Assembly: GCA_937906345.1 (NCBI GenBank)
Contig: CALCXY010000006.1
Coordinates: forward strand, 1 to 60,707
Direction: 5' to 3'
DNA from: Candidatus Woesearchaeota archaeon
Lineage (GTDB): Archaea > Nanobdellota > Nanobdellia > Woesearchaeales > CALCXY01
Length of the DNA stretch: 60,707 nt
A program made the translations under genes and the position numbers. Position 1 is the first letter of the stretch; every line of letters starts with the position of its first letter. Shown piece after piece: positions 28,405-60,707 of this stretch. The notes under the pieces were generated by a model, which was not told the DNA's origin, did not search any database, and saw only the letters and a program-made list of their open reading frames with translations.

Positions 28405-28505
28405 TGTAGAAAGACCTCTGGATTGTTTAAGAAAAAATCATAAAAAACAAAATAAAGGAATAAAAGGGCGTTAGAGGAGAAGCAGAACCAAATAGGAAAA
28501 GGAAG

Positions 28506-28577: not shown

Positions 28578-28801
28578 ATAAAGAAATCTGAATATATTAA
28601 GAATCGAGTTTACACAAGAAATAATTTTTGATTTATAATTGTTAAAAAGAATCGCCGAGCTATTTAGGATGAATACAACCAGCACTCACTTGTGCATTAA
28701 CCTCAATAGTTGTGTGTTTCATAGTATACTAGAAACTATAGGTTATATTTAAAGATTTCTATTTATTGATTTTGAGGGTGATTTTAGGTAATATTGTTGT
28801 T

Positions 28802-28967
28802 TTTTGAGGAGGATGCAGCCGCCAGCAAACAATAAGCTTGACTTTTATGCCCCACCTCCAAATTGATTAAGCCCAAGTCTCATATGTGACCTATTCTACA
28901 AGGGCTTAATCAATTTCCACCCATTGAATAAAGGAGCCTTTTTGCTTATCTGAAAAGCTCCTTTTTT
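28802..28967 (+). ncRNA. copy B of the conserved GC-rich element, with a 57-nt hairpin insertion and a terminator-like hairpin, upstream of hisS
   Basis: Shares its sequence blocks with 5221-5324. A 15-bp perfect hairpin AAATTGATTAAGCCC/GGGCTTAATCAATTT lies at 28860-28916. AGGAGC/GCTCCT plus T6 lies at 28932-28967. The possible micro-ORF at 28813-28866 reads MQPPANNKLDFYAPPPN. Confidence 0.4.
28932..28967 (+). terminator. hairpin plus T-run
   Basis: The stem is AGGAGC(C)TTTT paired with AAAAGCTCCT, followed by TTTTTT. It lies 55 nt upstream of the hisS ATG. Confidence 0.35.
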
Positions 28968-28990
28968 CAATCTTCTTTTTAACTAGATAC

Positions 28991-28999
28991 TTTTAAATA
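28991..28999 (+). promoter_or_regulatory. TATA-like box for hisS
   Basis: TTTTAAATA centred about 27 nt upstream of the ATG at 29022 (leaderless geometry). Confidence 0.35.
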
Positions 29000-29021
29000 C
29001 AATTACATTTCTTATGTATTT

Positions 29022-30257
29022 ATGCTAAAGAAAGCTAAAGGAACACTAGATTATTACCCAGAGGATGTGGGAATAAGGAATTACTTGTTTAATGTATTTA
29101 GAATGATCTCTGGAAGTTTTGGGTATAGTGAGGTGGAATCACCTGCATTTGAAGATTTATCATTATTAACTAAAAAATCTGGTGATGAGATTAAAAAACA
29201 AATATTTACATTGGAAAAAAAGGGCGAGGAATCATTAGGATTAAGGTTTGATTTAACAGTTCCATTAGCAAGAATGTTCATAGAAAAGCAAAAATCACTG
29301 CAAAAACCTGTTAAGTGGTCTTATTTAACAAGAATGTGGCGTTATGAAAAACCTCAACAAGGAAGATTAAGAGAATTTTACCAAGTAGGAGTTGAATTGT
29401 ATGGTTCTAAAGAAGCTATGAGTGATAGTGAAGTTATTAATTTAATCATTGATTTTCTTTTAGCATTAGGATTAAAACAAAGTGATTTTGAAGTTAGAAT
29501 TAATAATAGAAAATTATTGGAAGGTTTACTCTTAGAGATAGTAGATCCTGATATTATTATGGATGTTGTTAGGATTATTGATAAAAGATCAAAAATAAGT
29601 GAAGAAGATTTTGCAAGCGAATTAAAAAAATTAGGAGTAAAGGATGTTAAATCAATATCAAAATTAATTAATATTAAATTTTTTGAGGATTTAGAAAAAT
29701 TAGATAAGAATGCTTTAGCAACAGAGGGATATAATGAATTAAAAGCAATTTATCCTTTATTACAAAAAAAATATGTAACTATGAGCTTATCAACTGCTCG
29801 TGGATTAGATTATTATTCAGGAACTGTGTTTGAGGTTTTTGATAAAAAAGGAAAATTTAGGAGTATTTGTGGTGGTGGAAGGTATGATGACATGTTATCT
29901 GATTTTGGTGGTCAAGACTTAGGAGTAACTGGGTTTTCCATTGGAACAAGCACATTAACATTATTATTGCAAGATCGAAAACTTTTACCAGATGTAACTG
30001 AAGGTGTAGACTATTATATTGCTACAATAAAGGGAAATGAAAAAACTGCGTTAACTATAGCTACCAAATTAAGAAAAAAATATTCAGTTGATATTGATTT
30101 ATCAGGAAGAAATTTAGGAAATCAGTTTAAGTATGCAAATGCTATAAATGCTAAGTATGCCATAGTGGTTGGTGCTGATGAGGTTAAGTCAGGAAAAGTT
30201 AAGGTAAAAGAATTAGCAACTGGAAAAGAAAAAACAGTTGACATTAGAAGATTATGA
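29022..30257 (+). CDS. hisS: histidyl-tRNA synthetase
   Basis: Class II motifs (RYEKPQ.GR.REF.Q.G.E..G, GGGRYD) and a C-terminal anticodon-binding domain. Confidence 0.95.
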   Translation: MLKKAKGTLDYYPEDVGIRNYLFNVFRMISGSFGYSEVESPAFEDLSLLTKKSGDEIKKQIFTLEKKGEESLGLRFDLTVPLARMFIEKQKSLQKPVKWSYLTRMWRYEKPQQGRLREFYQVGVELYGSKEAMSDSEVINLIIDFLLALGLKQSDFEVRINNRKLLEGLLLEIVDPDIIMDVVRIIDKRSKISEEDFASELKKLGVKDVKSISKLINIKFFEDLEKLDKNALATEGYNELKAIYPLLQKKYVTMSLSTARGLDYYSGTVFEVFDKKGKFRSICGGGRYDDMLSDFGGQDLGVTGFSIGTSTLTLLLQDRKLLPDVTEGVDYYIATIKGNEKTALTIATKLRKKYSVDIDLSGRNLGNQFKYANAINAKYAIVVGADEVKSGKVKVKELATGKEKTVDIRRL

Positions 30258-33200: not shown

Positions 33201-33252
33201 GTTTTGTGATTACCTCTGGTGTATATAAATATGTGGGGTGATGTTGTTTACC

Positions 33253-35913: not shown

Positions 35914-36038
35914 TTTAAAAACCTCTTTATAGCTTCTTCAACTAAATGAGATTTATTTCTATAAGGGCTATTTTTAGCTTGTTCTCTAATCTTGACAGCT
36001 AATTCTTCATCTATTGAAATAGTAAATACTTGTTTCAT
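35910..36038 (-). CDS. 42-aa ribbon-helix-helix (CopG/Arc-like) protein
   Basis: Not in the ORF track. Sequence MKQVFTISIDEELAVKIREQAKNSPYRNKSHLVEEAIKRFLK, fitting beta strand, helix A, helix B. ATGA overlaps occur at both ends (36035-36038 and 35910-35913). Confidence 0.6.
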   Translation of the reverse strand: MKQVFTISIDEELAVKIREQAKNSPYRNKSHLVEEAIKRFLK

Positions 36039-39022
36039 TCTTTAGCTCCTTGATTCATATATTTCATAAAATTATTTGGATTATTTATTTTTCTATCCAA
36101 CATTCTATCTAAAAAGTCATCTAATGGCATATCCCATTGTTTTAAATTTTCATACGTTTTTTTAAGAGTTAATCTTTCTGGGAATGTTAGATAATTTTCT
36201 TTTTCAGTAGATATGGTTTCAATAACTTTTTGTATATTAGTTGGAATTAAATGTGCTTTATTTACAAATCTATCTTCTGCTATGTCATAATAATGTGATT
36301 CCATTGGTAGATCATAGGGGGTTGTAATTTTTGATTCTAAGAAGTCATTAATGTCTTGATCATCTTCTTTGAAATCAGTGTTAAATGTTCTAGGATCAAA
36401 AAATTCTCCTGTTAATTCAGCATATTCTCCTGGAGAATGTTCTATACCAAGATTTCTAGCTATTAATCTATTATATAACGAATCAATTGCTTCCAATTCA
36501 TATGTTGAGTCTGGTTTTTGGTCAAGTTCTTTGATGTAATTTAGTACCTGTCTTGTATTATCATCATTACTTGATTGTTCACTAAGATTAACAAATTCTA
36601 CATCAATATGTTGGAATCCATTTACTAAATGATAGATTTGTAAAGGATCAAAATCATGTAGATCTACAATTTCTTGGTATTTTTCAATTGTAGATTTAAT
36701 ATTATGAACAGCTCCTCCATATTTAACATCTCCAATTCTTGGTTTTGAGTCATTTGGTGGCCAATACAGGTCTGGAAAACTTAGTCGAGGAGATTGAAAC
36801 ATAGTTTCTGGAATAACATGTTCTCCAGCTCTTAATAGATTGTAAGTTACTACTTTTTGTAAAGCTCTCCCTTTTGCAAAATTATGTTCTAAAGTGTGTC
36901 CATTTTCATTTCCTTGATATAAAAGTTGAAAGAATACTTTGTTTGTATCTTCTTGGTTAGGTGTTTTCTCTAAAGCATGGAAATATAATTCTTGTAGTAC
37001 ATTTCTATTTCTTGATACAGGGGTTTGTCTAGGATCATGTTCGGGTACATCTTGAGGAAGTTGAAGTTTATCTTCAAGTAATTCAACATTAGTGGGATGG
37101 CCATTTGTGAATGTTACTTTTGCATTATTGCCTGCGAATTTTTCCAGTCCCTGACAAGTTAGGCCAAAAGTAGATAATAATCCTGATGAGGGTATAGATC
37201 TTTCTACTGAGATTGATGCTTTTTCTAACATTCCACACAAAATTCTTGCCAAGTTTGTATTATAAACATGTTTTATATAAATTGTTTGACCCTGGTAGAT
37301 TAATTTTACTTTACCTCCTTTAAATTCTTGATAATTGGGATGATCTTTTATTTCATTCAAAAGTTCTAGAATCGTGAGTTCTGAGGTTTCTATTTTACCT
37401 ACGAGGTCAATATCCTGTTTGACTTTTGGAATGCCATTTGTATGACAGTATTTTTCTGAGTATATAAGGGCCCTTGTTGGCTTTCCTTTATCAAAGGTAA
37501 CCTTGGTGGGAGAATTACTGTCGTTGGATTGTCTAATCCATCTCAATCCAAATGCGCTAAAGTTCCCTGAGGAGGGTAAATGTTTTTCAACATCGACTGT
37601 GGTTAGCTTTAATTTTTGTCCAAGTAATCTTTCAAGGGTGGGTCTTCCTGTTCCGTTTCCTTGTTTGATTTTGTAGCTTTGTCCTTGATAGTGTATTGTG
37701 ATGGCTTCTCCCTTTCTTTTTTTGTATTCAGGATCTTGTTGTATTGTGTGTATAAGTTCTGGAATTGTAAGTTCTGTGGTTGAAGTTTGGTTAATTAAAT
37801 TTATTTCATCCTCAATTTTTGCTCTTCCATCAGAATGGGGAAAAATGTTGGAACATACTCCTATCTCAACTGGACAATCCATTTCATATGTTATTCTTAT
37901 ATTTTTAGCAGCCAGTCTCTTGTTGGAATATGGAGTCATTCCGAACGCGCTAAATTCACCTGTGGATGGTAACTTCCTTTCGAAAGAGACTTTACTTTTT
38001 TTTAATTCGGATCCTAATAATTTTTCAAGGGCAGTCCTTCCTGTTCCGTTTCCTTGTTTGATATTGTAGTGTTGTCCTTGGTAGTGTATTTTTATGGATT
38101 TTCCTTTTCTTTTTTTGTATTCAGGATCTTGTTGTATTGTGTGTATAAGTTCTGGAATTGTAAGTTCTGTGGTTGAAGTTTGGTTAATTAAATTTATTTT
38201 TTCTTCAATTTTTGCTCTTCCATCAGAATGATGATATATATCAGAGTAAATTTCACATTTACAGGGGTGCCCATTAATAAAAGTCGTTCTTGTAAATCTT
38301 TCTTTTCTATTTCGGTGGCCATTCCAATATAATGTAAATGCTGATAAATTGCCTGAGGAGGGTAAACGTTTTTCAACATCTACTGAAGTTTGCCTTAATT
38401 TCTGTCCCAGTAGTCTTCGCAATCCTGAACGGACATTTTCAGATGCTTGTTTAATTGTGTATGTTTGTCCTTGGAAATGTATTGTGACAGTTTCTCCTTT
38501 TATTTGTTCGTATCCTGGATCTTCTTGTATTGTGTGTATAAGTTCTGGAATTGTAAGTTCTGTAAATAAGTTGTTACTTTTATTATCAAATCTTTCCTGT
38601 ATTTTAAATGTTCTGTCATTATTTTTGAATTTATCACTATATATTATAAAATTTATGGGATCTCCTTGATCAAAAGTTATTTTGGAATGTTTATTCCCAT
38701 ATCTTGATAATCCACTCCATGATAATCCAAATAAATTCATGGCTCCTGATGGGTTTAATTTTTTCTCACATTCTATTTTTGATTTTTTTAGTTCAATTGC
38801 AAGACGTTTTTCTAAACTTATTTTTGCCTTTTGTTTTGATTTTTTTATTTGGTATGTTTCTCCTCTATAGTGTAATGTAACAGTTTCACCAGTTCTTTCT
38901 GCATAAGTAGGATGAGCTTGTATTTGTCTGATAAGACTTACTACTTGGTCTTCTTCTATAGGTGTATCTACATCAGGTTCTAAAACTAAATTATCTATAG
39001 ATGTTGTTTCCATTTTTACCAA
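36035..39022 (-). CDS. 995-aa protein with five tandem ~131-aa modules plus a unique ~350-aa C-terminal region
   Basis: Uninterrupted 3-kb ORF. The module consensus is ELTIPELIHTIQ.DP.Y...KGE..TIHYQGQ.Y.IKQ......L..LLG..LK...V.VEK.LPSSG..SAFGL.........T F..G.P....IYS......G..KI...I.L. Confidence 0.85.
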   Translation of the reverse strand: MVKMETTSIDNLVLEPDVDTPIEEDQVVSLIRQIQAHPTYAERTGETVTLHYRGETYQIKKSKQKAKISLEKRLAIELKKSKIECEKKLNPSGAMNLFGLSWSGLSRYGNKHSKITFDQGDPINFIIYSDKFKNNDRTFKIQERFDNKSNNLFTELTIPELIHTIQEDPGYEQIKGETVTIHFQGQTYTIKQASENVRSGLRRLLGQKLRQTSVDVEKRLPSSGNLSAFTLYWNGHRNRKERFTRTTFINGHPCKCEIYSDIYHHSDGRAKIEEKINLINQTSTTELTIPELIHTIQQDPEYKKRKGKSIKIHYQGQHYNIKQGNGTGRTALEKLLGSELKKSKVSFERKLPSTGEFSAFGMTPYSNKRLAAKNIRITYEMDCPVEIGVCSNIFPHSDGRAKIEDEINLINQTSTTELTIPELIHTIQQDPEYKKRKGEAITIHYQGQSYKIKQGNGTGRPTLERLLGQKLKLTTVDVEKHLPSSGNFSAFGLRWIRQSNDSNSPTKVTFDKGKPTRALIYSEKYCHTNGIPKVKQDIDLVGKIETSELTILELLNEIKDHPNYQEFKGGKVKLIYQGQTIYIKHVYNTNLARILCGMLEKASISVERSIPSSGLLSTFGLTCQGLEKFAGNNAKVTFTNGHPTNVELLEDKLQLPQDVPEHDPRQTPVSRNRNVLQELYFHALEKTPNQEDTNKVFFQLLYQGNENGHTLEHNFAKGRALQKVVTYNLLRAGEHVIPETMFQSPRLSFPDLYWPPNDSKPRIGDVKYGGAVHNIKSTIEKYQEIVDLHDFDPLQIYHLVNGFQHIDVEFVNLSEQSSNDDNTRQVLNYIKELDQKPDSTYELEAIDSLYNRLIARNLGIEHSPGEYAELTGEFFDPRTFNTDFKEDDQDINDFLESKITTPYDLPMESHYYDIAEDRFVNKAHLIPTNIQKVIETISTEKENYLTFPERLTLKKTYENLKQWDMPLDDFLDRMLDRKINNPNNFMKYMNQGAKE
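37102..38944. repeat. in-frame tandem coding repeats (five units, period about 393 nt) inside the 995-aa gene
   Basis: A 91-nt perfect direct repeat occurs at 37716-37806 and 38109-38199 (offset 393 nt). A partial third copy lies near 38510, and more diverged copies lie at both ends. Confidence 0.8.
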
Positions 39023-40383: not shown

Positions 40384-40432
40384 AACATAAATCAAGCTTA
40401 CAAAGTTTAAAAACTTTGTGGTTTTGAGTAAT

Positions 40433-40539
40433 GGCGTGGTACCCTAATCCGGTATGGGGCCTGACTGAAAATCAGGTGGGTTTTCCGACCTTTACGGGTT
40501 CGAAAAATCTACGGAACTTCGAAAGTCCCGTCCACGCCG
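40433..40539 (+). tRNA. type-II (long variable arm) tRNA with G73, apparent anticodon GAA and a putative 21-nt intron in the T-loop
   Basis: Manual fold:
- acceptor GGCGTGG/CCACGCC
- D arm CCC/GGG with loop AATCCGGTA
- anticodon stem CCTGA/TCAGG with loop CTGAAAA
- 17-nt variable arm TGGGTTTTCCGACCTTT
- T stem ACGGG/CCCGT separated by 28 nt (TTCGAA + 21 nt + T). Confidence 0.65.
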
Positions 40540-40592
40540 CTCAATCCCTTAAAATAGTAACTCTTATATATCCTAACCTAACTTCTTCCCTT

Positions 40593-41021
40593 ATGACAGT
40601 TAAGAAAGGCGATAAAATTAAAGTTGAATACACAGGAACATTAGAAGATGGTACTGTTTTTGACTCTAGTGAGAAACATGGCAAAGCTTTAGAGTTTGAA
40701 GTAGGATCAGGCCAAATGATTAAGGGTTTTGATGCTGCAGTTATTGGTATGAAAAAAGATGAAGAAAAAACCATTAACTTAGAACCAGAAGATGCTTATG
40801 GCCCTCAAAACGCTGAGATGATTAAAAATATTCCTAGGGAGCAGTTTCCTAAAGAACAAGAACCAAAAGAAGGTATGGTATTATTACTCCAAACTCCAGA
40901 AGGAGGCCAATTTCCTGTTAAAGTTGTTGGTGTTACAGATAAAGAAGTGAGTTTAGATCTAAATCATCCTTTAGCTGGTAAGAAATTAACTTTTAAGTTG
41001 AAGGTTGTTGGGATTAATTAA
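40593..41021 (+). CDS. FKBP-type peptidyl-prolyl cis-trans isomerase (short, SlyD-like)
   Basis: V.V.YTGTLEDGTVFDSS........F.VG.GQMIKGFD.AV.GM and LAGK.L.F motifs. The start was set to ATG 40593 because the track ORF runs through the tRNA. Confidence 0.85.
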   Translation: MTVKKGDKIKVEYTGTLEDGTVFDSSEKHGKALEFEVGSGQMIKGFDAAVIGMKKDEEKTINLEPEDAYGPQNAEMIKNIPREQFPKEQEPKEGMVLLLQTPEGGQFPVKVVGVTDKEVSLDLNHPLAGKKLTFKLKVVGIN

Positions 41022-48563: not shown

Positions 48564-50900
48564 TTATTTATACCCATGAATAAAAATCTCTTCTTTAAAG
48601 ACATGTTTTAATTTTTTGTAAGAAACGTGTAGTTTTGCTTTTTTGAAAGCATTTTCAACTTGTTTTTTATCATTAACAAATAAAGCATTTGGAGATACAT
48701 CAAGCATATGATGTTTGATATGGAAACAAAAATGACCTCCTGGTTTTAGAGTGTTATGTAATTGTTTTAAAAACGAATCAATATCTTTTACGTTTCCTAA
48801 CACTCCAAATCCTACAATTTTATCTGCTTTTTTAATCTGTTTGGGAATTGCCCAACCACTTACTTTAATTGGTGTAACTTTCTTTTTCTGATCTTTATGC
48901 ACTTTTTCTTTAAAAATTTCAAGCTCTACATCTGAGTTATGAACAGTATATACTTTTTTATATTTTATACCTTTACGATGGAGTAAGTGAGTAAAAATTC
49001 CTAATTCAGAATTCAAATCAACAACAACATGATTTTTATTAGGGGTTCCTACTAGATTCATAATATGATTAAATCGAGGAACATTTGTTCCCATTTGATG
49101 AAAGATATGTTTAAATCGAGCCATGGAGTCTTTTCTCATGGAAACATATTTATCATCATAAAATATTTCAATAAAGAAGTAAGCTGGAATACCAAACAGG
49201 ATAAGTGCTCCTGAGACTCTTAATACATCTAGTGCGCCATGGGTTTCGTGAATAAACATATATAATAAGAATCCCATAAAGAGAATTGTGAGCAAAGGTC
49301 CAATTTTTCCAAAAATAACACGATAGGGTCTTGGGATCATTGGTTGTCTTATTCTTAACATTACCACACTTAATAGAACTGCTGAATACACAAAAAGAAT
49401 CAAAGGAATAAGCATATGTAATAAGGTTTCATAATTTCCTGCACCTACAAAAATCAACCCTGATATGATTATTACTTGAAATACAATAGAAACATAAGGA
49501 CTTTTGTGTTTAGGATGAATTTTCCCAAACTGCACAAAAAATAATTTATCCTCAGCTAAACTCATTAATAATCGTGGTGCAGTTACTACCCAACACGCTA
49601 CTGCGCCAATAATAGAAACAAAAACTAATAATGTGAATATAATATTTCCTGCACCACCAAAATGAGCTTCTCCTAATGCACTTAGAGGGGCAGCGGTTTC
49701 TCCAAATTGTTCCCATGGGATAATTCCAATTGAAGTAGCTGCTAGTAAAAATGCTAACGCAGCAATTATTACTGTTCCCCAAATTAATGCTCGAGGCATT
49801 ACTTTAGATGGATTTTTAGTCTCAGCAGAAAGAAAGACAGCAGATTCCCATCCGAAAAAAGTTTCAGCTATGAAAAATATCGAAAGGATAATACTCATGC
49901 TAGGGAATACAAAAAATGGAGTTAAATTACTTAAATTAAATGAAAAGATATTTGGAATAAGGATAGCTATAACAGTTACAAAGGTTACAGCTGCAAAACT
50001 CACTAACATGACTGTTGAGGTTTGCATTCCTCTATATGCTACATAATTAAATAATACAAGTAAACCAATAGAGATTGGGACATACCATGCACTATATTCT
50101 AAAGGAATAAGGTATTGCATTGCACCTAATAAGAGCATAGCTATAGTTACAGAACCTGCTATTGATGTAGTCCATCCAATTACAAAACTCCAGAATCTTC
50201 CATAGGCTTGTTTGGCAAACTCATAAACTCCTCCTGCTTTTGGAAACATAGCCGTTAACTCAGAGAAACACATCGCTATATATACAGAGATTAAAGAGAG
50301 TATTCCCCATGAAATTAATGATGCTGGGCCAGCATGTTTTGCTCCAGCAGCTGTTAAGAACCAAATTCCTGTTCCCATGATTGAATTAATGGTTATTATT
50401 AAAATGACTTTAAAACTTAAAACTCCTTTCATCTCATGTTCATGAGGTTGTTTTTTTCTAATTTTACCAGGTTTCAAATGTTTTCTCATACGTAAAAATC
50501 TAGGTGCTCTTGCAACAAATCTTGTTAAACGAAGCAATCTACTAAATCTTACTAATTTAGCTGCTCTTCCAGCTCTCGCAATAATTCTTCCTCCTCTTAA
50601 AGCTCGAGTAAAAATTAAGTGATCTACACCTAAGAAAATTAGGTTAAAAGGAATAGTTGCTATAATATCTAGAAAATGTTTTCTTACATATGGGATTATG
50701 TGAGGGGTTTCAAACCAACGATAATACAAATCAATAGCAAAAATAGCAATTACTACGAAATCAAAGATGTCAATGAAAAATAAGTATTTAGAAGCATCAA
50801 AAAAGAGTTCCCAAATACTCACAACCATTAATAAAATAAGTAATGGAGGGATTAATATTTGGACTAAGCTATCTAACTTACTTTTTTCTATCTCAACCAC
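48564..50900 (-). CDS. three-part fusion: voltage-sensor-like S1-S4 domain, APC-family amino-acid permease, and a methyltransferase-like C-terminal domain
   Basis: - N-terminus: four TM helices ending in the S4-like RFSRLLRLTRFVARAPRFLRMRK
- middle: about 12 TM helices with APC-type GTGIW...AG.A/FSELTAMFPKAGG
- C-terminus: VVDLNSELG ... LKPGGHFCFH. Confidence 0.8.
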   Translation of the reverse strand: MVEIEKSKLDSLVQILIPPLLILLMVVSIWELFFDASKYLFFIDIFDFVVIAIFAIDLYYRWFETPHIIPYVRKHFLDIIATIPFNLIFLGVDHLIFTRALRGGRIIARAGRAAKLVRFSRLLRLTRFVARAPRFLRMRKHLKPGKIRKKQPHEHEMKGVLSFKVILIITINSIMGTGIWFLTAAGAKHAGPASLISWGILSLISVYIAMCFSELTAMFPKAGGVYEFAKQAYGRFWSFVIGWTTSIAGSVTIAMLLLGAMQYLIPLEYSAWYVPISIGLLVLFNYVAYRGMQTSTVMLVSFAAVTFVTVIAILIPNIFSFNLSNLTPFFVFPSMSIILSIFFIAETFFGWESAVFLSAETKNPSKVMPRALIWGTVIIAALAFLLAATSIGIIPWEQFGETAAPLSALGEAHFGGAGNIIFTLLVFVSIIGAVACWVVTAPRLLMSLAEDKLFFVQFGKIHPKHKSPYVSIVFQVIIISGLIFVGAGNYETLLHMLIPLILFVYSAVLLSVVMLRIRQPMIPRPYRVIFGKIGPLLTILFMGFLLYMFIHETHGALDVLRVSGALILFGIPAYFFIEIFYDDKYVSMRKDSMARFKHIFHQMGTNVPRFNHIMNLVGTPNKNHVVVDLNSELGIFTHLLHRKGIKYKKVYTVHNSDVELEIFKEKVHKDQKKKVTPIKVSGWAIPKQIKKADKIVGFGVLGNVKDIDSFLKQLHNTLKPGGHFCFHIKHHMLDVSPNALFVNDKKQVENAFKKAKLHVSYKKLKHVFKEEIFIHGYK

Positions 50901-53584: not shown

Positions 53585-53848
53585 CTACTTATAAATCCGA
53601 TCATGATGATCAAACTCTTCAAATATTACATTTTTATTATCTTCATCTACAGAAAAAACAAGAACAAAACTTTTATCAATGTGAACTCTTTTTAGGTGTT
53701 GTGAAGGTTTTCTTAAATTTTTATAATGATGAGGGTTTTTGATTATTTCTCTAATTTTATTAAATACTATATTAAATTGATTAGGATTTTTCTTTTTTAA
53801 TTTAAGTAATACTTTATCTAATTGTTCTTTAATGTCAAAAGAATACAT
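53585..53848 (-). CDS. RelE/ParE-superfamily toxin
   Basis: ...KI.EII.NPHHYK.L......LKRVHIDKSFVLVF.VDE....V.F..FDHHD.IY matches the RelE/YoeB-like pattern. It starts immediately after the antitoxin stop. Confidence 0.7.
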   Translation of the reverse strand: MYSFDIKEQLDKVLLKLKKKNPNQFNIVFNKIREIIKNPHHYKNLRKPSQHLKRVHIDKSFVLVFSVDEDNKNVIFEEFDHHDRIYK

Positions 53849-54091
53849 TTACTTCATACCATATCTCTTTTTAAAATTTTCAATGGAGCCTATTTTAACA
53901 GTCTTTTGCTTAGAAATTTTTTTCATTTTTTGAATAAACTCAGGCCTTAATTCAGGTTCATCTTGGTCTTCAATAAATTTATCAACAACGTATTGAATAG
54001 CCTCTCCTTTATCTTTTAATCCATTTGTAGCTTTTACTACATTTAATACCCTATTTGTATTATCATCCAGTTTTACAAGTGCGTTTACCAT
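53849..54091 (-). CDS. antitoxin partner (80 aa)
   Basis: Small ORF directly abutting the toxin gene: VKLDDNTNRVLNVVKA..GLKDKGEAIQYVV. Confidence 0.5.
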   Translation of the reverse strand: MVNALVKLDDNTNRVLNVVKATNGLKDKGEAIQYVVDKFIEDQDEPELRPEFIQKMKKISKQKTVKIGSIENFKKRYGMK

Positions 54092-54404
54092 TTTAGTTGA
54101 ACTAAGTCGAGCTTATTTATAAAGTTTTTGGTTTTAAAGAAGGTATGCCCCCGCCGGACATAAGAATTCAAATACACATCCCATTCTTTGTTGTTTCTTA
54201 ACTCTCTTTATAGTATAACTGCTATTTATACTCTTCTATTTGGTGTTGCTCTTAAGCAGTAGGAGATTCCATCCTTAGATAAGAAATTCTTTAATACGAC
54301 TTTCTGAGAATGCTGAGATCATATTTCATGAAATTTATTTTAACGTATCCGTTACATACTTTTTGTTAAATGCTTTATTATATTTTTTTGTCTTATAGAG
54401 ATTT

Positions 54405-54548
54405 ATGAAAAATTGTAAGACTTGCGGAAAGTTTCTCAAGAACTCTGAAAAAAGATATTGCAAGACGTGCTGTTCTTTTCATAAGTATAAGTATTCTGAC
54501 AAGCAGAGAAGAAAGCTGGAGCGAGCATATGAGAGGTGTAGTAAATGA
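54405..54548 (+). CDS. 47-aa zinc-ribbon protein translationally coupled to dcm
   Basis: Not in the ORF track. MKNCKTCGKFLKNSEKRYCKTCCSFHKYKYSDKQRRKLERAYERCSK has two CxxC pairs, and its stop overlaps the dcm ATG (ATGA at 54545-54548). Confidence 0.5.
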   Translation: MKNCKTCGKFLKNSEKRYCKTCCSFHKYKYSDKQRRKLERAYERCSK

Positions 54549-55474
54549 AGCCGAGTGTGCTTGATCTTTTTGCGGGTTGTGGTGGTCTGAGTTATGGTTT
54601 TCAAAAAGCAGGGTGTAGTATAGAGGGATTTGTGGAGTCATGGAAGCCGGCAATAACAACATTTCTGCATAACCACCCTAAGGCGTTGCATCTCGGCTCT
54701 GATATCACTAAAGTATCAGATGCAGCTCTTCTGACATGGAAGGGCAAGGTTGATATTATTGTCGGTGGTCCACCCTGCCAAGGCTTTAGTATGTGTGGTA
54801 AAAGAGACCCACACGACAAAAGAAACCAATTGTACAAGGAATTTATCAGATGTGTAGCATTCATCAATCCTAAAGTTGTAGTGATGGAAAACGTGGCTGG
54901 TATGCTGAGCATGGAGGATAAAGATGGAGAAAAAATCCTGCTTAAAATTATTGATGATCTTATCCAGATGGATTATTTTGTGTCTTATCGGAAGCTGAAC
55001 GCTGCTGAGTTTGGAATTCCTCAAAATAGAGAACGTATTTTTATCATTGCAGTAAAGCTGAGCTTGTTTCCTATTCCTACGTTTGAGAAAAAGACTACTA
55101 TGGAGGCTATTCAAGACCTTCCTGAGCATGAGCATTGGATCAATGGGCATATCCTCTTTGATACCACTCCAGAGACGCTGGAAAAGATTAAGAAGTTAAA
55201 GTCGGGAGAAAAATTATACTCTACTTTTAATTTTGGGAGGCAAAGATTGCGTCCAGACAAGCCTTCCAGAACTGTTCCTACTAATCCTATTTTTATCCAT
55301 CCAGAGTATGATCGTTTTCTTACTCCTAGAGAAATGGCTCGATTGCAGAGTTTCCCGGACGATTTTACGTTTTGCGGGACAAAAACAGATATGGCTACTA
55401 TGATTGGGAATGCTGTTCCACCAAGGCTATCTCAAAAAATAGCATCTACAATTTGCGAGAGTGGTATCCTATGA
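54545..55474 (+). CDS. dcm: DNA (cytosine-5)-methyltransferase
   Basis: Motif I DLFAGCGG, motif IV GGPPCQGFS, motif VI ENV, motif VIII QNRERIF and motif X GNAVPP. Confidence 0.95.
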   Translation: MKPSVLDLFAGCGGLSYGFQKAGCSIEGFVESWKPAITTFLHNHPKALHLGSDITKVSDAALLTWKGKVDIIVGGPPCQGFSMCGKRDPHDKRNQLYKEFIRCVAFINPKVVVMENVAGMLSMEDKDGEKILLKIIDDLIQMDYFVSYRKLNAAEFGIPQNRERIFIIAVKLSLFPIPTFEKKTTMEAIQDLPEHEHWINGHILFDTTPETLEKIKKLKSGEKLYSTFNFGRQRLRPDKPSRTVPTNPIFIHPEYDRFLTPREMARLQSFPDDFTFCGTKTDMATMIGNAVPPRLSQKIASTICESGIL

Positions 55475-55776
55475 TAAAGGAACTGGAAGTTACAATGCTC
55501 TTTTTCATGACCTACATACCTTTGAGTACAGTCTTATGGATAATTGAGCAAAGAACCCTCATGGAATTAGCAGTCATACAGTTGATAGGATTAATTATCA
55601 TTCTTTGCTATTTGGTTGCAAGTATTGTTCTTTTTGAGTATCATAGGATGAAAAGAATTAGCAATAAAAAATCATCTGTACCTCAGATTAGCTATCATCC
55701 AAACGTTGATGAGTTTCTTGCTTTCCGAAAATTATTCTCAAAAAAACAAGAGGTGAAGAAAAATGAACAAACTTAG
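55471..55776 (+). CDS. small membrane protein (2 TM helices)
   Basis: Its ATG overlaps the dcm stop (ATGA at 55471-55474). Two hydrophobic helices are followed by a basic tail. Confidence 0.55.
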   Translation: MIKELEVTMLFFMTYIPLSTVLWIIEQRTLMELAVIQLIGLIIILCYLVASIVLFEYHRMKRISNKKSSVPQISYHPNVDEFLAFRKLFSKKQEVKKNEQT

Positions 55777-56092
55777 AATACTCATATTGTATACCCTGCT
55801 ATTGGTAATACCAATGTCCTTGGCAGCTATAGACTTTGACGCTGAACTTACACCAGAGGAAGAGCAGCAATTTGATCAAATCCTTGAGCCTGTGATGAAA
55901 ATTTACAAGTTTTTCAAGTATGCGGCAACAGTTGTAGGTGTGTTAATGCTTGTTTTTGCTGCCATAACTCTGGCTACCTCAGGCGGTGATACAGGAAAGA
56001 AGGAAAAGGCAAAGTTAACCATAATGGCTGTTATTGGCGCTCTTGTCCTGATCTGGGTAGCTCCATTCGTAGTTACTGCAATCTTTGGATAA
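55763..56092 (+). CDS. VirB2/TrbC-like pilin candidate (109 aa)
   Basis: Signal peptide ending SLAA, then two hydrophobic helices separated by the short basic loop SGGDTGKKEKAK. Size and topology fit T4SS pilins. Confidence 0.5.
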   Translation: MNKLRILILYTLLLVIPMSLAAIDFDAELTPEEEQQFDQILEPVMKIYKFFKYAATVVGVLMLVFAAITLATSGGDTGKKEKAKLTIMAVIGALVLIWVAPFVVTAIFG

Positions 56093-56094
56093 TC

Positions 56095-58134
56095 ATGAAA
56101 CCACTCTCAACACTATTCATTGTATTATTTTTAGTTCCACTGGTAAGTGCTTTTCCCTGTGATCAAATTAATGATATAAGCTATTGTAAAGAAATTGTTG
56201 ATCTCAATCTCACAGTTACGGAAAGGGATAATCTCTATTCTGCCTTGCTCTACGATCAGCATACTATTCCTAATCATACTTTTGTAAAGAATTATAATCT
56301 AGGAATAGAAGTAACATCTCCTCCAGATAATACAACTCTCCATAGCTCTGATTTTATCAAAGATGCATGGCTACGATTCCTCTCTGTTTTTCCTTCTGTG
56401 TATGAGAACTCAACCTTATATGTGAATGAGAATATAGAGGCAGTAAGTGCTTTTGATTACTTGATTGAACTACCTCCAGACTATAAATCCCAACGACATC
56501 CAGAGACCCGTCAAGGAGATTGTAAAAGACAATATACTTTAGTATCCGAAGAGCAACAACTCAATTATTATGATGATGGAATTCTGAAAGGACAGAATAA
56601 ACACTCCTTTTTTAGTATAGAACAGGATGGACCTATTGAAGCTAGGCTAACAATAAAAGCAACTGTTCAAGTAAGGCATTATCAGTGGAAGCTACACAAA
56701 AAAGGAAAGAGACGCTATCATCGTTGTGAATATCATCATACTGACACGATTACAGATACTTTGAAGATTTCAGATACGATAACAGTAAGCGTTTATACTA
56801 AGGAACCTTCAATAAGCCTGTATGTACATGATGAGTATTTTGATACGCTTAAAGGAAGCTTTGTTGGAGCAGACTTCAGTTTGTTGAAGCTAATCTTCAA
56901 CAATGCAAGCTTACTTCATCAGAAGTATTGGTATGATGTTGTTTTTAGCCACAAGCCTTACTATTTTGCTACGTTTAGAACCCATCCTGTTTCCCGTATC
57001 ACACCATATAATCTCTTCTTTAGTAATGGATCGTATTTTGTTAAAAGCTTTGATACGTGTGACGTATGGGCTTTGGACTATTTTGATGAGTATATGCTTC
57101 CTTGTAATTTCATTACTGATCAGGATATTGTTGAGCCCTTAGTAATTCCAGAAAAGGATATAGATATTGATCTCTTGATTAAGATTATTTTCTTTCTTGT
57201 GTTTTTAGCTTTTTTTTATATGCTCGGTAAGGCACAGTTTGGTAAGCTTAATCTTCTTTTTATCTTATTAATTTTGGTTTTGCCTTTTGTTGCTGCTGAG
57301 GAGCAGGAAAAATGTGGCATTACAAATCTTGCTTCTTGTATTCCTGAGAAAATTTACAATTTTCTGCTTGTTATCATCAATATTACAATTATTCCTTTGT
57401 TGGCAGGAATTAAATCTTTGTTATTGGCTGATGTTCAGATTGACTTGTTTTATCATGTCTGGAGTGTGATACGCTACTTGCTAAGCTTTTTTTACTTGTT
57501 CATCTTTGTCTATGCAGGATATATTTATCTGTTCTCTGGGAGTAGTCCTATGAAGCGTGCACAGGCTAAAGACATGGTGCAGAACACACTGATTATGATT
57601 GTGCTTGTGCAAGCGTCCTTCTATCTCTATGGTCTGATATTGGATTTGAGCATTGCATTAAACAGTACGTTTGTAGGTTTTATTGATCCTCATTTTTTCT
57701 TACTGACTGCTGATAATATTGTTAATATAGGTTTGCAGTTTGTGTTTGGAGGAGTGTATATGCTTGTCTTGTTGGGCACATTGCTTCTTTTAGTGATTCG
57801 CTATATTGTGGTGTGTTTTGGTGTAGTAATCTTACCCTTTGGGCTGTTCTGCATGGTTGTTCCTCCCCTGAAAAGCTTTGGACAGTTTATCATGGAAGTG
57901 TTAGGATGGTTTATCTTTATTACGTTCATTGATTTGCTTATTATTTTTGTATGTAGTTTAATAATTCAAGTTTCGTTGTTTGAGAATTTCAAGATTCTTG
58001 TGATGATTGCTTGTTTTTCTATCGTGAATTATACTCTTTGGCTAACTATTAAGCTAGTGCTGCATCGTTCAGCCAATTTTTCAGTAAAAGAGAGCATTAA
58101 GCAAACTGCAAAATACCTTGCTCTTGCATTGTAA
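56095..58134 (+). CDS. VirB6/TrbL-like polytopic membrane protein with a large N-terminal extracellular domain
   Basis: Signal peptide, a soluble region of about 350 aa, then about 7-8 TM helices. It sits between the pilin-like and VirB4-like genes. Confidence 0.5.
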   Translation: MKPLSTLFIVLFLVPLVSAFPCDQINDISYCKEIVDLNLTVTERDNLYSALLYDQHTIPNHTFVKNYNLGIEVTSPPDNTTLHSSDFIKDAWLRFLSVFPSVYENSTLYVNENIEAVSAFDYLIELPPDYKSQRHPETRQGDCKRQYTLVSEEQQLNYYDDGILKGQNKHSFFSIEQDGPIEARLTIKATVQVRHYQWKLHKKGKRRYHRCEYHHTDTITDTLKISDTITVSVYTKEPSISLYVHDEYFDTLKGSFVGADFSLLKLIFNNASLLHQKYWYDVVFSHKPYYFATFRTHPVSRITPYNLFFSNGSYFVKSFDTCDVWALDYFDEYMLPCNFITDQDIVEPLVIPEKDIDIDLLIKIIFFLVFLAFFYMLGKAQFGKLNLLFILLILVLPFVAAEEQEKCGITNLASCIPEKIYNFLLVIINITIIPLLAGIKSLLLADVQIDLFYHVWSVIRYLLSFFYLFIFVYAGYIYLFSGSSPMKRAQAKDMVQNTLIMIVLVQASFYLYGLILDLSIALNSTFVGFIDPHFFLLTADNIVNIGLQFVFGGVYMLVLLGTLLLLVIRYIVVCFGVVILPFGLFCMVVPPLKSFGQFIMEVLGWFIFITFIDLLIIFVCSLIIQVSLFENFKILVMIACFSIVNYTLWLTIKLVLHRSANFSVKESIKQTAKYLALAL

Positions 58135-58138
58135 AAAA

Positions 58139-60707
58139 ATGGATTATGACATTCCGCCGGAACTGAAGCATAAGGGTAAGATACTGTGGAGTCTTACGCT
58201 ATCACAGATTGGCTATGCTATCCCAGCAGCGATTATTATCTTTTTCATTTTGTTTAAGACAGGGCTGCCTTTGCAGTATTCTTGGATTCCTGCCATGCCT
58301 GTTGTGTTGTTGGCAGGTTTTTTCATGTTTTTTGATGGTGTGCAGCATTGCAAGGATTGGTATAATCATTTTAGGAATCCAGAAATTGAGGTGTTGAGTG
58401 CAACACTCAAGGAGATTGTGGACATTCAGAAAGTGAAGAATGATATGGTTTTGCAGAGTAACGCAAAGCTTGCTATTCTTGAAGTGATTCCAATGAATTT
58501 CATGCTGAAAACTGATGAGGATAAAGAAACAGTTATCAATGGTTTTCAAAAGTTCCTGAATAGCCTTGATTTTCCTATTCAGGTGCATATCAGCAGCAAT
58601 CCCATTAGTTTAAAGCAGCATTTTCAGCATGTGCATGAGAGAGTACAAACTAGAATTCGAAAGTTAAAGAAGCAGAAAGAGGGTGAAGAGGCTATTAATT
58701 ATTGCCTGTCATTGGTAGATGATTATTGCAGCTTTGTTAGGGGTGTTTTGGAAGGCAATAATATTCGTAACAGGCATTTTTATATTATTATCAAGGAAGT
58801 TTCTGATTTGGCTATGCAGGTTAAGATTTGCACAGAAAACCTTACGAGTCTTGGACTGAAGGTAAGAAAACTCTCTACCGAGCAATTATCTCATTTTTTT
58901 CATGCCTACATTGCGAAGAGTAAAAAGAAAAAAATACAAGCTGAGCAAGTGGACGATGTTGCTCATTTTTTATATGCTCCTGAAAAGATTGTTTTTAAGT
59001 CGCATCATTTTATTGTTGATGATGCTGTAGGAAAAGTTCTAGTAGTGGATGGGTATCCTCACAAAGTAGATATGAGCTTTCTGGACAAGATCATTAGTTC
59101 TGGAGAGGAGTATGATATTAGTATTCATATTGAGCCGTTTCCTATTGATTTGACCATGGTGCGGTTGAATAGGAGTTTACAGGATCAGCGTTTTGACTTG
59201 TATGAGGATACAAAGAAAGGAATCATTAATCCTAGCTTAGAGATTAAGTTCAAATCAACTCGAAAAGTATTAGAGGATTTGCAGAAAGGAAGGCAAAAGC
59301 TCTTTAACGTTTCTCTTTATATCATGTGCAAGGGTAAGAGTGTTGAAGAAGCTGATTTATTAGCTAAGCGAGTGAAGGCTGATTTGGATGGGCTGATGAT
59401 TCAGAACAAAGTGCCTGCATTTCGGTCCATACATGCCTATGCGAGTATGCTTCCTCTGGCTAATAACAAGCTCAATATCCAGAAGAATATTCATACGAAG
59501 GGCTTGGCTGCGTTCTTTCCTTTTTCCAGTCCGTTTCTTGACATTCAGAATACAGGTATTCTTTTGGGTTTGAATAAGAATAGGATTCCTGTTATCAAAG
59601 ATGTTTTTTCTCTGACTAATGCGAATGGCATTTGCTTGGCTACAAGCGGTTCAGGCAAGAGTTTTTTTACTAAGCTTATGCTTTCCCGACAGTATCTGAA
59701 TGGGTGTGATATCCTTATTATTGATCCTCAAGGAGAGTATCTTGCAATTACTGAACATTACAAAGGAGAAAGTATCACGATTAGCAAAAACTCTGATACC
59801 ATCATTAATCCTCTTGATTTGATGGGTCATGAGTATTTAGAAAAAAGGTTGTCATTGATGGATATGTTTCAGATCATGTTTGGTGACCTTACTGAGATTC
59901 AGAAAGCTATTCTAGATAAGGCTATTGATCTGACATATGCGAGAAAGGATATCAACAGGGATACTTGGAAAGCGAAGACTCCTCCTAAAATGCAGGATTT
60001 GTATATGGTTATGAAAGACCTGCACCGAAACTGCCATTCACAAGAAAAAGTGACTTATCGGGCATTATTAAATAGGTTGAGGATGTATACAGAGGGAGGA
60101 GTGTTCTCTTTTTTGAATAGGGATACAAATATCAATTTCAGTAAAGACTTTATCTGCTTCAATATCGGAAATATGCCGAAGCAGGTAAAGCCGCTAGTAA
60201 TGTACTTGGTATTGGATTATGTGTATATGCGGATGAAAGAATCCTTAAAGAGAAAATTGTTAGTTATTGATGAGGCTTGGGCCATGCTGCAAACAGCAGA
60301 AGAAAGCTCATATGTATTCGAGATTGTAAAAACATGCAGAAAGTATAATCTTGGGCTGTTGATGATAACACAGGATGTGGCTGACTTAATAAATTCTAAG
60401 GCTGGGCATGCTGTTTTGGCTAATACTTCTTATACTTATTTGCTGAGGCAAAAATCAGCTATTATGAGAAGTGTCCAGACAACCTTTAATCTTAGCCAAG
60501 CTGAGAAGGAGTATTTGTTAACAGCTGATAAAGGCAAAGGTATTCTGATTATGGAGAATGAACATCAAGAATTAGAGGTTATTGCTTCAAAAAAGGAGCA
60601 TGAGTTGATAACTACCAACCCTGATGAGATGGTTAAGAAAGGTGAGAAGAAGAAAGGGAAGAAAAAAGAACAGAAGGATGTAAACATATCTTTAGATTTG
60701 AAGCAAG
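58139..60707 (+). CDS. virB4: VirB4/TraC-family T4SS ATPase with an N-terminal PrgI/VirB3-like membrane segment (3' end outside the window)
   Basis: Not in the ORF track. The frame was hand-translated and is open to the window end (856 codons). It has two N-terminal TM helices, Walker A LATSGSGKSFF, Walker B LLVIDEAW and ITQD. Confidence 0.9.
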   Translation, partial: MDYDIPPELKHKGKILWSLTLSQIGYAIPAAIIIFFILFKTGLPLQYSWIPAMPVVLLAGFFMFFDGVQHCKDWYNHFRNPEIEVLSATLKEIVDIQKVKNDMVLQSNAKLAILEVIPMNFMLKTDEDKETVINGFQKFLNSLDFPIQVHISSNPISLKQHFQHVHERVQTRIRKLKKQKEGEEAINYCLSLVDDYCSFVRGVLEGNNIRNRHFYIIIKEVSDLAMQVKICTENLTSLGLKVRKLSTEQLSHFFHAYIAKSKKKKIQAEQVDDVAHFLYAPEKIVFKSHHFIVDDAVGKVLVVDGYPHKVDMSFLDKIISSGEEYDISIHIEPFPIDLTMVRLNRSLQDQRFDLYEDTKKGIINPSLEIKFKSTRKVLEDLQKGRQKLFNVSLYIMCKGKSVEEADLLAKRVKADLDGLMIQNKVPAFRSIHAYASMLPLANNKLNIQKNIHTKGLAAFFPFSSPFLDIQNTGILLGLNKNRIPVIKDVFSLTNANGICLATSGSGKSFFTKLMLSRQYLNGCDILIIDPQGEYLAITEHYKGESITISKNSDTIINPLDLMGHEYLEKRLSLMDMFQIMFGDLTEIQKAILDKAIDLTYARKDINRDTWKAKTPPKMQDLYMVMKDLHRNCHSQEKVTYRALLNRLRMYTEGGVFSFLNRDTNINFSKDFICFNIGNMPKQVKPLVMYLVLDYVYMRMKESLKRKLLVIDEAWAMLQTAEESSYVFEIVKTCRKYNLGLLMITQDVADLINSKAGHAVLANTSYTYLLRQKSAIMRSVQTTFNLSQAEKEYLLTADKGKGILIMENEHQELEVIASKKEHELITTNPDEMVKKGEKKKGKKKEQKDVNISLDLKQ

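Follow-up and report, generated by a model that had tools for sequence, protein, structure and literature searches.

A compact, probably mobile type IV secretion-derived cassette of DPANN archaea is a candidate apparatus for relaxase-independent DNA transfer or uptake

Introduction

The described systems closest to the locus reported here, a six-gene cassette at the right end of a 60,707-nt contig from a Candidatus Woesearchaeota archaeon (GenBank assembly GCA_937906345.1, contig CALCXY010000006.1; this whole stretch is called the window below), are the type IV secretion systems (T4SS) of bacteria and archaea. In monoderm bacteria, conjugative T4SS of the mating-pair formation (MPF) classes MPF-FATA/FA are exemplified by CD1110, CD1112 and PrgI of C. 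difficile and by Mbov_0395-0397 of the Mycoplasma integrative and conjugative element (ICE), and pCDC3875 has VirD4, VirB6, PrgI, VirB4 and SLT. Other archaeal ICEs, from Sulfolobales and Nitrososphaeria, are larger and encode a VirD4/TraG-like second ATPase; to our knowledge, no pilin has been recognised in them. The crenarchaeal DNA importers Ced (CedA/CedA1/CedB) and Ted (TedA/TedC/TedB) are chromosomal and have neither a relaxase nor a type IV coupling protein (T4CP). A system analogous to the present one was described in 2025 in Patescibacteria, where no VirB3-VirB4 fusion was found in 3,035 genomes (PMC12102498).

DPANN archaea form a large, mostly uncultivated radiation whose gene exchange and host interaction are largely unexplained, and the question that this locus touches is how DNA is processed without a relaxase in archaeal T4SS-type transfer. 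Here we report that the locus is a whole T4SS-derived cassette, save for the 3' end of its ATPase gene, which is cut off at the window end. Its motor, PrgI segment and pilin are by sequence closest to monoderm bacterial systems (Firmicutes/Mollicutes, MPF-FATA-like), and its architecture is closest to Ced/Ted and the Patescibacteria T4SS. The reading we favour, and consider somewhat probable, is that of a relaxase-independent apparatus for DNA transfer or uptake, derived from a T4SS and carried on a mobile cassette. Full-text literature searches returned no description of this cassette in Woese-, Pace- or Nanoarchaeota, and the system as such appears to be undescribed, with single genes already labelled in databases (VirB4-like CD1110 family, pilin, DUF8186, TraC-like).

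Results

A predicted six-gene operon encodes the cassette

Reading the open reading frames (ORFs) of the window gave six overlapping or abutting plus-strand genes from 54405 to the window end. These genes, the zone in front of them and the two modules of the fifth gene are as follows (TM, transmembrane).

54270 to 54404, no strand: left border zone of a block of distinct GC content, with a putative promoter region (GC step, contig ends)
54405 to 54548, plus strand: Zn-ribbon protein, 47 aa, CxxC...CxxCC, first gene of the predicted operon (stop overlaps the methylase start by 4 nt)
54545 to 55474, plus strand: Dcm-type cytosine-C5 DNA methyltransferase, 309 aa (PF00145 7.9e-71; TIGR00675 4.6e-58)
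55471 to 55776, plus strand: small membrane protein, 101 aa, 2 TM segments (hydropathy)
55763 to 56092, plus strand: VirB2/TrbC-type T4SS pilin precursor, 109 aa (PF18895 and TrbC matches)
56095 to 57237, plus strand: module A of the 679-aa protein (AlphaFold model; conserved cysteines; separate genes in relatives)
57247 to 58134, plus strand: module B of the 679-aa protein, VirB6/CedA-like channel or platform candidate (separate genes; hhalign to pilin)
58139 to 60707, plus strand: PrgI/VirB3-VirB4 fusion ATPase, 856 of 1027 aa in the window, without stop (NCBIfam, PDB and PrgI matches)

Because start and stop codons overlap, the six genes are predicted to form one operon and to be transcribed together. 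The Zn-ribbon ORF, the methylase gene and the gene for the 2-TM protein are joined by 4-nt overlaps, and the junctions among the last four genes are overlaps of 4 or 14 nt or gaps of 2-4 nt. A putative promoter lies at 54270-54404, with a TATA-like A/T-rich TTTATTATA about 34 nt 5' of the first ATG (54405). The cassette measures about 6.4 kb and has a single ATPase.

An earlier note on this DNA, made from the letters alone, had described the last four genes as a minimal T4SS-like module (a 2-TM protein, a pilin, a VirB6-like protein and a VirB3/VirB4 fusion), and all four were found as described, at 55471-55776, 55763-56092, 56095-58134 and 58139 to the end, with their motifs and TM segments in place. 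They are not chance ORFs, since the pilin matched PF18895 at 40.4 bits, the ATPase matched VirB4 models at 3e-100 and 2e-94, and identical copies occur in at least five other samples. The note had overlooked the methylase and Zn-ribbon genes of the predicted operon. Nor had it recognised that the 679-aa protein is a fusion, that the ATPase ends in a further domain, or that the cassette lies in a strain-variable and probably mobile context.

An exact look-up with the 679-aa protein located the 100% identical locus in the contigs of these other samples (ENA, JGI (Tara Oceans) and Logan), and the identical contigs, like the window, stop inside the ATPase gene or at most 182 nt past its stop. That the locus is what remains of a decaying conjugative element and now lacks a function we hold to be very improbable: the window copy is indeed without integrase, T4CP and relaxase, and its variable border adjoins a toxin-antitoxin pair, but each of the six ORFs is intact and coupled in translation to its neighbours, contigs of several samples carry the locus at 100% identity, and the reduced gene set is kept over ATPase identities of 43%-72% in hundreds of genomes, a conservation that requires purifying selection.

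A pilin of VirB2/TrbC type

The 109-aa protein has a signal-peptide-like N-terminus ending SLA/A, followed by an acidic N-terminus and two hydrophobic helices divided by the basic loop SGGDTGKKEKAK. It matched PF18895 T4SS_pilin at 3.2e-10 (40.4 bits, cutoff 26.6) and TrbC/VirB2 at 4.4e-5, and weakly the Mbov_0395 pilin-like family of NCBIfam (1.2e-5). Among 31 close homologues most carried PF18895 and PF04956 TrbC/VirB2, and some were labelled pilin or TrbC/VirB2 family by NCBI or JGI. The AlphaFold model (predicted local distance difference test, pLDDT, 80.6) consists of a signal helix and a hairpin, with helices at 3-21, 31-72 and 77-108. With PF18895 above its gathering score, PF04956 in its homologues and a helical-hairpin model, the protein qualifies as a VirB2/TrbC-type pilin, as the note had proposed from topology, and we treat it as such below. 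Foldseek of the model against the PDB returned generic helical hairpins (CnrX, HR1 and others), which are uninformative for a fold so small, and the pilin profile found no chain at E<=10 among PDB sequences, solved pilins included, and hence none of Ced or Ted, provided that the PDB copy searched contains them.

A VirB4-type motor with a fused membrane anchor and an extra C-terminal domain

The complete ATPase, 1027 aa long, was recovered from a related contig (L002:7471-10554; L numbers are our handles for related loci) that is 100% identical over the shared DNA, and also from L003; in both, the ATPase stop lies at most 182 nt from the contig end. Walker A (GSGKSF) is at aa 504-509 (nt 59648-59665) and Walker B (VIDEAW) at aa 709-714 (nt 60263-60280). 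The strongest matches were to the NCBIfam family VirB4_plasma, the family of Mycoplasma ICE Mbov_0397 (3.1e-100, aa 10-824), and to the clostridial conju_CD1110 family (1.9e-94, 317 bits against a cutoff of 325); the TraC-F-type (1e-43) and VirB4_CagE (1e-30) models scored far lower. Pfam matches were P-loop_TraG (1e-29) and TraC_F_IV, the sole PDB sequence match was 4ag5, Thermoanaerobacter VirB4 (7.2e-35), and the plasmid relatives were VirB4s of Firmicutes and Spiroplasma at 23-31% identity. By these matches, the ATPase body is a VirB4 of monoderm type.

In front of this body lie two N-terminal TM segments (aa 18-68), within a PrgI-like TM hairpin at aa 4-68. PF12666 PrgI was matched by 29/29 N-termini of the family (110-aa segments; best 1.2e-8, the window's own 0.0012), and hhalign against the PrgI of C. 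botulinum pCDC3875 aligned aa 3-75 (Prob 71, E 3.7e-5). Since PrgI was present in all N-termini tested and aligned to the pCDC3875 protein, the PrgI/VirB3-VirB4 fusion is real and universal in the family; with a VirB4 body of monoderm type behind it, the fusion named in the note was thus borne out.

The VirB4 body ends at about aa 825 and is followed by a lysine-rich linker and then by a conserved domain of about 150 aa; the linker alone lies inside the window, and the full length and C-terminal domain were taken from L002 and L092. This domain is kept in 103/120 best homologues, with invariant residues E, H (HTFLV), D (PDIIF), E-x-E-T-G, K (KF) and R. The order of the motif, E..H..PD..ExETG..K, is compatible with a PD-(D/E)xK-type nuclease core, and as a working hypothesis we take the domain to be a candidate nuclease of that type. 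Searches with 23 members against Pfam and PHROGs, and with the profile against PDB sequences, gave no significant match and no consistent family; VRR_NUC was matched by 1/23 domains at a non-significant 0.027.

In Peribacillus plasmid matches (H15, H24, H25), the region homologous to the ATPase is split over two adjoining genes, trsD and a DUF87 ATPase gene; TrsD may be the counterpart of the VirB4 N-terminal domain, fused in the present protein.

The 679-aa protein is a fusion of an ectodomain and a membrane protein

The ORF at 56095-58134 encodes a signal peptide, an exported hydrophilic part of about 340 aa and a polytopic C-terminal half. Its AlphaFold model (pLDDT 66.9; predicted template-modelling score, pTM, 0.42) shows, in order, the signal peptide, a short Cys-rich helical segment, an all-beta ectodomain at aa 96-341 (confident), a TM helix at aa 358-381 and about nine more helices. 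The cysteines of module A are conserved. The first TM helix is followed by another stretch that resembles a signal peptide, LLFILLILVLPFVAA/EE, and then by a conserved CG(L/I)TNLASC motif. An exhaustive profile search for this family gave 778 cluster representatives, many of which cover just one part of the profile, either positions 1-390 (in proteins 385-460 aa long) or positions 388-684 (in proteins 275-310 aa long), and in related loci these parts, module A (the ectodomain) and module B (the polytopic part), are two adjoining genes. The 679-aa protein is therefore a fusion of an exported beta-rich ectodomain protein with a polytopic membrane protein.

Comparison of 32 module-B proteins with 30 pilins by hhalign gave Prob 96.7 (E 4.5e-10, 101 columns); in the window protein, aa 454-508 (nt 57454-57618) align to pilin aa 46-100 (hhalign Prob 85.5), and PF18895 was matched directly by 18/32 module-B proteins. 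The N-terminal hairpin of module B is thus homologous to the cognate pilin. Beltran et al. (PMC9905601) reported homology of this kind for CedA with CedA1 and, less strongly, for VirB6 with VirB2.

The note had called the 679-aa protein VirB6/TrbL-like. Its position between pilin and VirB4, its topology and the pilin-like hairpin stand in favour of that call, and direct similarity to TrbL or VirB6 is weak: TrbL_4 was matched by 1/32 module-B members (0.0021) and TrbL by one (0.12). The window protein itself had no VirB6 match in Pfam or NCBIfam and carries the precomputed label DUF8186 on record. Remote-homology comparison of the pilin-like and VirB6-like ORFs, a check the note had proposed, yielded by hhalign the similarity of module B to the pilin and no match of the 679-aa family or module B to clostridial CD1112 VirB6 or R388 TrwI; a template of one sequence has little power, and homology is still compatible with this result. 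Profiles of the 679-aa protein and of module B found nothing relevant among PDB sequences. Foldseek of the whole model found nothing at E<=0.001, the signal being diluted in a two-domain model of medium confidence; among its non-significant matches was 8rtd_L of the R388 stalk/arches/inner membrane complex (TMt 0.46, E 1.7, rank 46). Chain L is most likely TrwI/VirB6, because among the R388 components considered (pilin, VirB3, VirB4, VirB5, VirB6 and VirB8) only VirB4 and TrwI/VirB6 are longer than the chain's 268 modelled residues and because the aligned region is the helical membrane half. Considering its position between pilin and VirB4, its number of TM helices and its pilin-like N-terminal hairpin, module B is best read as VirB6/CedA-like, with membership of the TrbL family unproven.

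Small genes at the head of the cassette

Homologues of the small Zn-ribbon protein (clusters c29, c10 and c62) head the cassette in many related loci, and a C5 methylase occupies the equivalent position in L012, L013, L016 and L018. The 2-TM protein has hydrophobic stretches at aa 7-25 and aa 27-60 and a conserved C-terminal motif, (A/G)FR(K/N)LF; it had no match in Pfam or NCBIfam, and counterparts by position, with one or two TM segments and a matching C-terminal motif, are present in L011, L012, L013, L014, L018 and L022.

The cassette family is characteristic of DPANN archaea

At least 514 homologues of the ATPase were found at E<=1e-5, and identities and names were taken from the best 120, which are 48-72% identical. 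The few with names belong to Woesearchaeota, Nanoarchaeota or "archaeon", but for one Cloacimonetes-labelled metagenome-assembled genome (MAG); most are nameless, and several lie on contigs of 0.2-1.5 Mb. A first genome search with a single protein gave one locus, and an alignment query was then used. A scan of one genome per GTDB species with two peptide patterns gave 158 relatives, and 80 loci were kept, all with Woese-, Pace- or Nanoarchaeota labels or unreliable automatic ones. These results indicated that the cassette is characteristic of DPANN archaea. A viral origin was rejected, as IMG/VR viral contigs contained no relatives.

The common order in the 80 loci is pilin, B6-like protein, B4. 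Clustering of the ORFs gave the core order as a small Zn-ribbon protein, a small TM or short Cys-rich protein, the pilin, modules A and B, and an ATPase of about 1000 aa; modules A and B are fused or split across loci, and at times module B occurs alone. Recurrent neighbours are N6/N4 DNA methylases (24 loci), C5 methylases (13 loci, at times with Vsr), two families of tyrosine recombinases (17 and 9 loci) and a small ribbon-helix-helix (RHH) protein with a faint NikA-like or CopG-like match (0.01-0.04). Neighbour frequencies were counted over the 48 loci whose upstream DNA extends for 8 kb or more: a stand-alone DNA methylase lies within 10 kb on either side in 28/48, and a type I restriction-modification (R-M) system lies near the cassette in 13/48. 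A TFIIB homologue (Zn-ribbon and TFIIB repeats, 1.7e-31), present in 17 loci, recurs just 3' of the cassette, with a conserved 88-aa ORF before its gene; loci with TFIIB downstream of the ATPase are L029, L033, L036, L038, L039, L042, L044, L045, L085 and others. This protein may be the element's dedicated transcription factor. Other neighbours are reverse transcriptases and Fic, and in L038 the VirB6-like and VirB4 genes are separated by a Gabija-like pair (4740-8349), made up of an ATPase of the OLD family (AAA_15/TOPRIM, 1e-35) and a helicase of UvrD type (5e-42).

The absence of a relaxase, coupling protein and integrase from the window, pointed out in the earlier note, was upheld, and it extends for T4CP and relaxase to the relatives. 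Neither was found in the precomputed Pfam annotation within 10 kb on either side of L005-L008, nor among the recurrent neighbour clusters or large P-loop proteins of the 80 loci, the rest of the genomes not having been searched. The few P-loop neighbours are defence ATPases of OLD/ABC type, with no recurrent second large P-loop ATPase in the 80 loci and no HerA, Rad50 or ParA seen among the neighbours.

This distribution raises the possibility of a host-interaction organelle of an episymbiotic DPANN cell, in which the pilus and ectodomain attach to or penetrate the host envelope and then either import host macromolecules, with nucleic acids supplying nucleotides, or inject effectors; incoming nucleic acid would be degraded by the C-terminal domain of the ATPase. 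Restriction of the family to DPANN-labelled genomes fits such a role, as do the ectodomain, which is large, rich in Cys, quick to evolve and joined to the channel protein, the variable pilin and a strain-level variability that would suit an arms race at the cell-cell interface. There are also parallels: relaxase-less T4SS with PF18895 pilins are widespread in Patescibacteria, where components are reported essential for epibiotic growth (PMC12102498), a 2026 preprint proposes that tubes resembling T4SS form where parasite and host meet and that host RNA serves as food, and giant surface proteins with a VirB4 domain have been proposed as secretion devices of nanohaloarchaea (PMC10266531). However, the window encodes histidine, arginine and riboflavin biosynthesis, which gives no clear sign of a cell that depends on a host, the repeated occurrence of DNA methylases and R-M systems near the cassette suggests that DNA serves as information and not food, and no conserved effector candidates lie beside the cassette; we would call this role improbable.

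The cassette is probably mobile and lies in strain-variable DNA

Tyrosine recombinases lie within 10 kb upstream of the cassette in 18/48 loci. In 7/13 examined loci of the c5 integrase type, a tRNA gene (Asp in four, Glu in two, Cys in one) stands 85-180 nt upstream of the integrase and is followed by a conserved block: integrase, variable cargo, N6/N4 methylase, RHH protein, Zn-ribbon protein, pilin, B6-like module or modules, and ATPase. That one block recurs beside different tRNAs is an argument for joint movement of integrase and cassette. In L082, 15 nt of the tRNA 3' end are repeated 14.7 kb downstream, which is the single credible attR candidate; in 6/7 tRNA-linked loci no attR repeat was found within the DNA examined, and a candidate repeat in L054 was rejected, as it falls inside the pilin gene.

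Several MAGs carry two or three copies, with ATPases 49-76% identical to each other and one pair at 90%. In GCA_964498285.1, a 780-kb contig holds two divergent, back-to-back cassettes (L005/L018) with ATPases 60% identical and a C5 methylase each; two tyrosine-recombinase genes lie between them, and a reverse transcriptase and type I R-M lie downstream.

The window copy has borders of its own. GC content climbs from 0.25-0.30 to 0.37-0.42 between 54001 and 54750 (500-nt windows) and stays high to the window end, which places this cassette, at +0.057 against its flanks, among the outliers of 57 loci; otherwise cassette GC equals flank GC over the 57 loci, with a median difference of 0.001. Positions 54225 and 54271 are where short contigs of other samples stop. 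A ParE-like toxin (PF05016, 1.2e-4) and DUF2683 form a toxin-antitoxin-like pair immediately beside the left edge of the GC block (53585-54091, minus strand), and a 727-nt contig from another sample (L098) departs from the window sequence at 53640, within the toxin gene, marking a second strain-variable point.

The note had advised extending the contig to the right and looking there for VirD4/TraG, a relaxase, an integrase and a second att site. Extension supplied the 3' end of the ATPase gene, and one contig of the metagenome scan (L092) reaches 1.5 kb further right than the other identical ones, into a truncated ScpA-like ORF and a 413-aa ORF. L091 (Tara Oceans) is 99.7% identical to the element-bearing L092 downstream and diverges about 100 nt after the ATPase stop. 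At L091 1-358 there is an intact 111-aa ScpA-like ORF where the element-bearing strain (L002 10554-10736, L092) has the ATPase 3' end and a truncated version of the ORF; the 413-aa ORF follows in both L091 and L092. The left part of L091 is absent from the window and was not found in GTDB genomes, and a look-up with the DUF2683 protein recovered no empty site for the left flank, so the arrangement was not resolved as a simple insertion. Strain heterogeneity at the right border probably explains the assembly breaks here. Two 10-nt matches between the left zone and the right junction, ATTTATAAAG and CACATCCCAT, were rejected as att sites, being near chance in AT-rich DNA; the window has no integrase, and no tRNA lies near its cassette. 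Taken together, we conclude that the cassette is probably horizontally mobile and lies in strain-variable DNA.

Such mobility could mean that the cassette is a minimal archaeal ICE that exports its own island, with a tyrosine integrase inserting it at tRNA genes, the methylase protecting the transferred DNA, and the window copy having lost or never had its adjacent integrase. The upstream recombinases, the tRNA genes followed by a conserved block, the L082 repeat, the divergent cassettes flanking two integrase genes in L018, the several divergent copies per genome, the deviant GC and strain-variable right border of the window copy and the defence cargo (R-M, Gabija-like pair, reverse transcriptase, Fic) interleaved with the cassette are all what an ICE would leave. 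We nevertheless regard it as an unlikely account: the window is without an integrase, no coupling protein, relaxase or replication gene turned up at the loci, attR repeats are missing from six of the seven tRNA-linked loci within the DNA examined, cassette GC has usually ameliorated to that of the host, and integrase and defence genes may merely share a genomic hot spot with the cassette. Bolder, and distinctly unlikely in our estimation, is the idea of tRNA-integrating mini conjugative elements of DPANN with a single motor, in which a VirB4 that has absorbed VirB3 and a nuclease replaces both relaxase and coupling protein and the methylase serves as an anti-restriction passport. If true, this would mean one-ATPase, relaxase-free DNA conjugation or uptake, and a main DPANN route of gene flow or nucleic-acid acquisition.

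Host chromosome and other features of the window

The window is archaeal, since its genes include those for ribosomal protein S3Ae and a type II methionine aminopeptidase, and one of its tRNAs presumably contains an intron; gyrB lies within it together with the arginine, histidine and riboflavin biosynthesis genes, and it is therefore chromosomal. The histidine cluster at 21670-30257 comprises hisD, a hisA-hisIE fusion, tRNA-His (28505-28576) and histidyl-tRNA synthetase (29022-30257). A 107-nt tRNA was called by Rfam at 40433-40539 on the plus strand (48.6 bits), where ARAGORN made no call; it presumably contains an archaeal intron, and the mechanical ORF 40431-41021, which overlaps it at its start, may be spurious. 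On the minus strand, three giant ORFs (982, 886 and 995 aa) follow one another at 30252-39022 with no Pfam match at E<=1e-5 and may encode surface or DPANN-specific proteins. Also on the minus strand, 48564-50900 encodes a 778-aa protein of unusual fusion. Its amino-acid permease domain is preceded at the N-terminus by a segment of positive charge that may be channel-like, and its C-terminal part has weak Pfam matches to SAM-methyltransferases.

Discussion

In the relaxase-independent transfer or uptake apparatus that we favour, the six genes would be transcribed as a single operon. The pilin would enter the membrane and lose its signal peptide, and the VirB4 motor, held by its own fused PrgI/VirB3 hairpin, would dock on the VirB6/CedA-like module of the 679-aa protein and pull pilin from the membrane. 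Pilin could then polymerise on a VirB3/VirB6 platform into a conduit or pilus, with the fused beta-rich, disulfide-bonded ectodomain at the cell surface, at the base or tip, touching the partner cell. Nucleic acid, most probably DNA, would be moved between cells without relaxase or coupling protein, as in Ced/Ted and the Patescibacteria T4SS; the predicted co-transcribed C5 methylase might mark the handled DNA, and the C-terminal domain of the ATPase is a candidate for DNA cutting. The VirB4, pilin and conduit steps follow established T4SS biology, and pilus formation, substrate, nuclease activity and methylase role are what we infer for the cassette.

Several points weigh against this apparatus. 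The methylase may be selfish or anti-restriction cargo unrelated to the machine, and the substrate could be RNA, protein or nothing at all, as in a purely adhesive pilus. The proposed nuclease assignment comes from a motif pattern, and Pfam, PHROGs and the PDB gave no significant match to the domain; direct similarity of module B to TrbL/VirB6 is weak. Considering that cassette GC equals host GC in the 57 loci, most copies are long-resident, and a cellular function fits at least as well as a mobile one. Even so, the cassette is a concrete, compact and widespread candidate machine, comprising a pilin, an ectodomain-fused channel and a single motor with a membrane anchor and a possible nuclease.

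Comparison with known systems

Monoderm conjugative T4SS supply the best matches to the ATPase, share the PrgI-type VirB3 with the cassette and have the order pilin, membrane protein, VirB4 in common with it. Unlike them, the cassette lacks a coupling protein of VirD4 type, a relaxase, a cell-wall hydrolase and a VirB8-like gene; its PrgI is fused to VirB4, its VirB4 has an extra C-terminal domain, and its channel protein has no detectable similarity to CD1112 VirB6.

The note had also held the three-gene core to be conserved with Ced/Ted, and on architecture this stands: the same VirB2-like, VirB6-like and VirB4-like core occurs in both without T4CP or relaxase, by architecture only. Like these systems, the cassette is chromosomal; TedC has a cleavable signal peptide, as the cassette pilin appears to, and the N-terminus of the Ced channel is homologous to its cognate pilin, as reported in PMC9905601 and as found for the cassette's channel protein. 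In contrast to Ced/Ted, the cassette is multi-copy, strain-variable and linked to integrases and methylases, and its ATPase is nearest to bacterial monoderm VirB4s and carries a fused VirB3 and an extra C-terminal domain.

Other archaeal ICEs, of Sulfolobales plasmids and Nitrososphaeria (cited in PMC9905601), are integrase-associated, have a VirB4-type ATPase and lack a recognisable relaxase, as does the cassette family; the cassette differs from them in its size of about 6.4 kb, its one ATPase and its clear pilin.

The Patescibacteria (candidate phyla radiation, CPR) T4SS resemble the cassette in belonging to a host lineage of ultrasmall cells and in having an MPF-FATA-related VirB4 (PMC12102498), as well as in their PF18895/PF04956 VirB2-like pilins, PrgI/VirB3 and VirB6-like protein and in the absence of a relaxase from most clusters. 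The cassette is set against them by its archaeal host and its universal VirB3-VirB4 fusion. That account describes no fusion of ectodomain and channel, no C-terminal domain of the ATPase and no linkage to tRNA and integrase, all of which occur in the cassette family. What sets the cassette apart from the monoderm, Ced/Ted and Patescibacteria systems alike is thus the fusion of VirB3, VirB4 and an extra domain, the fusion of ectodomain and channel, and the methylase, integrase and tRNA context.

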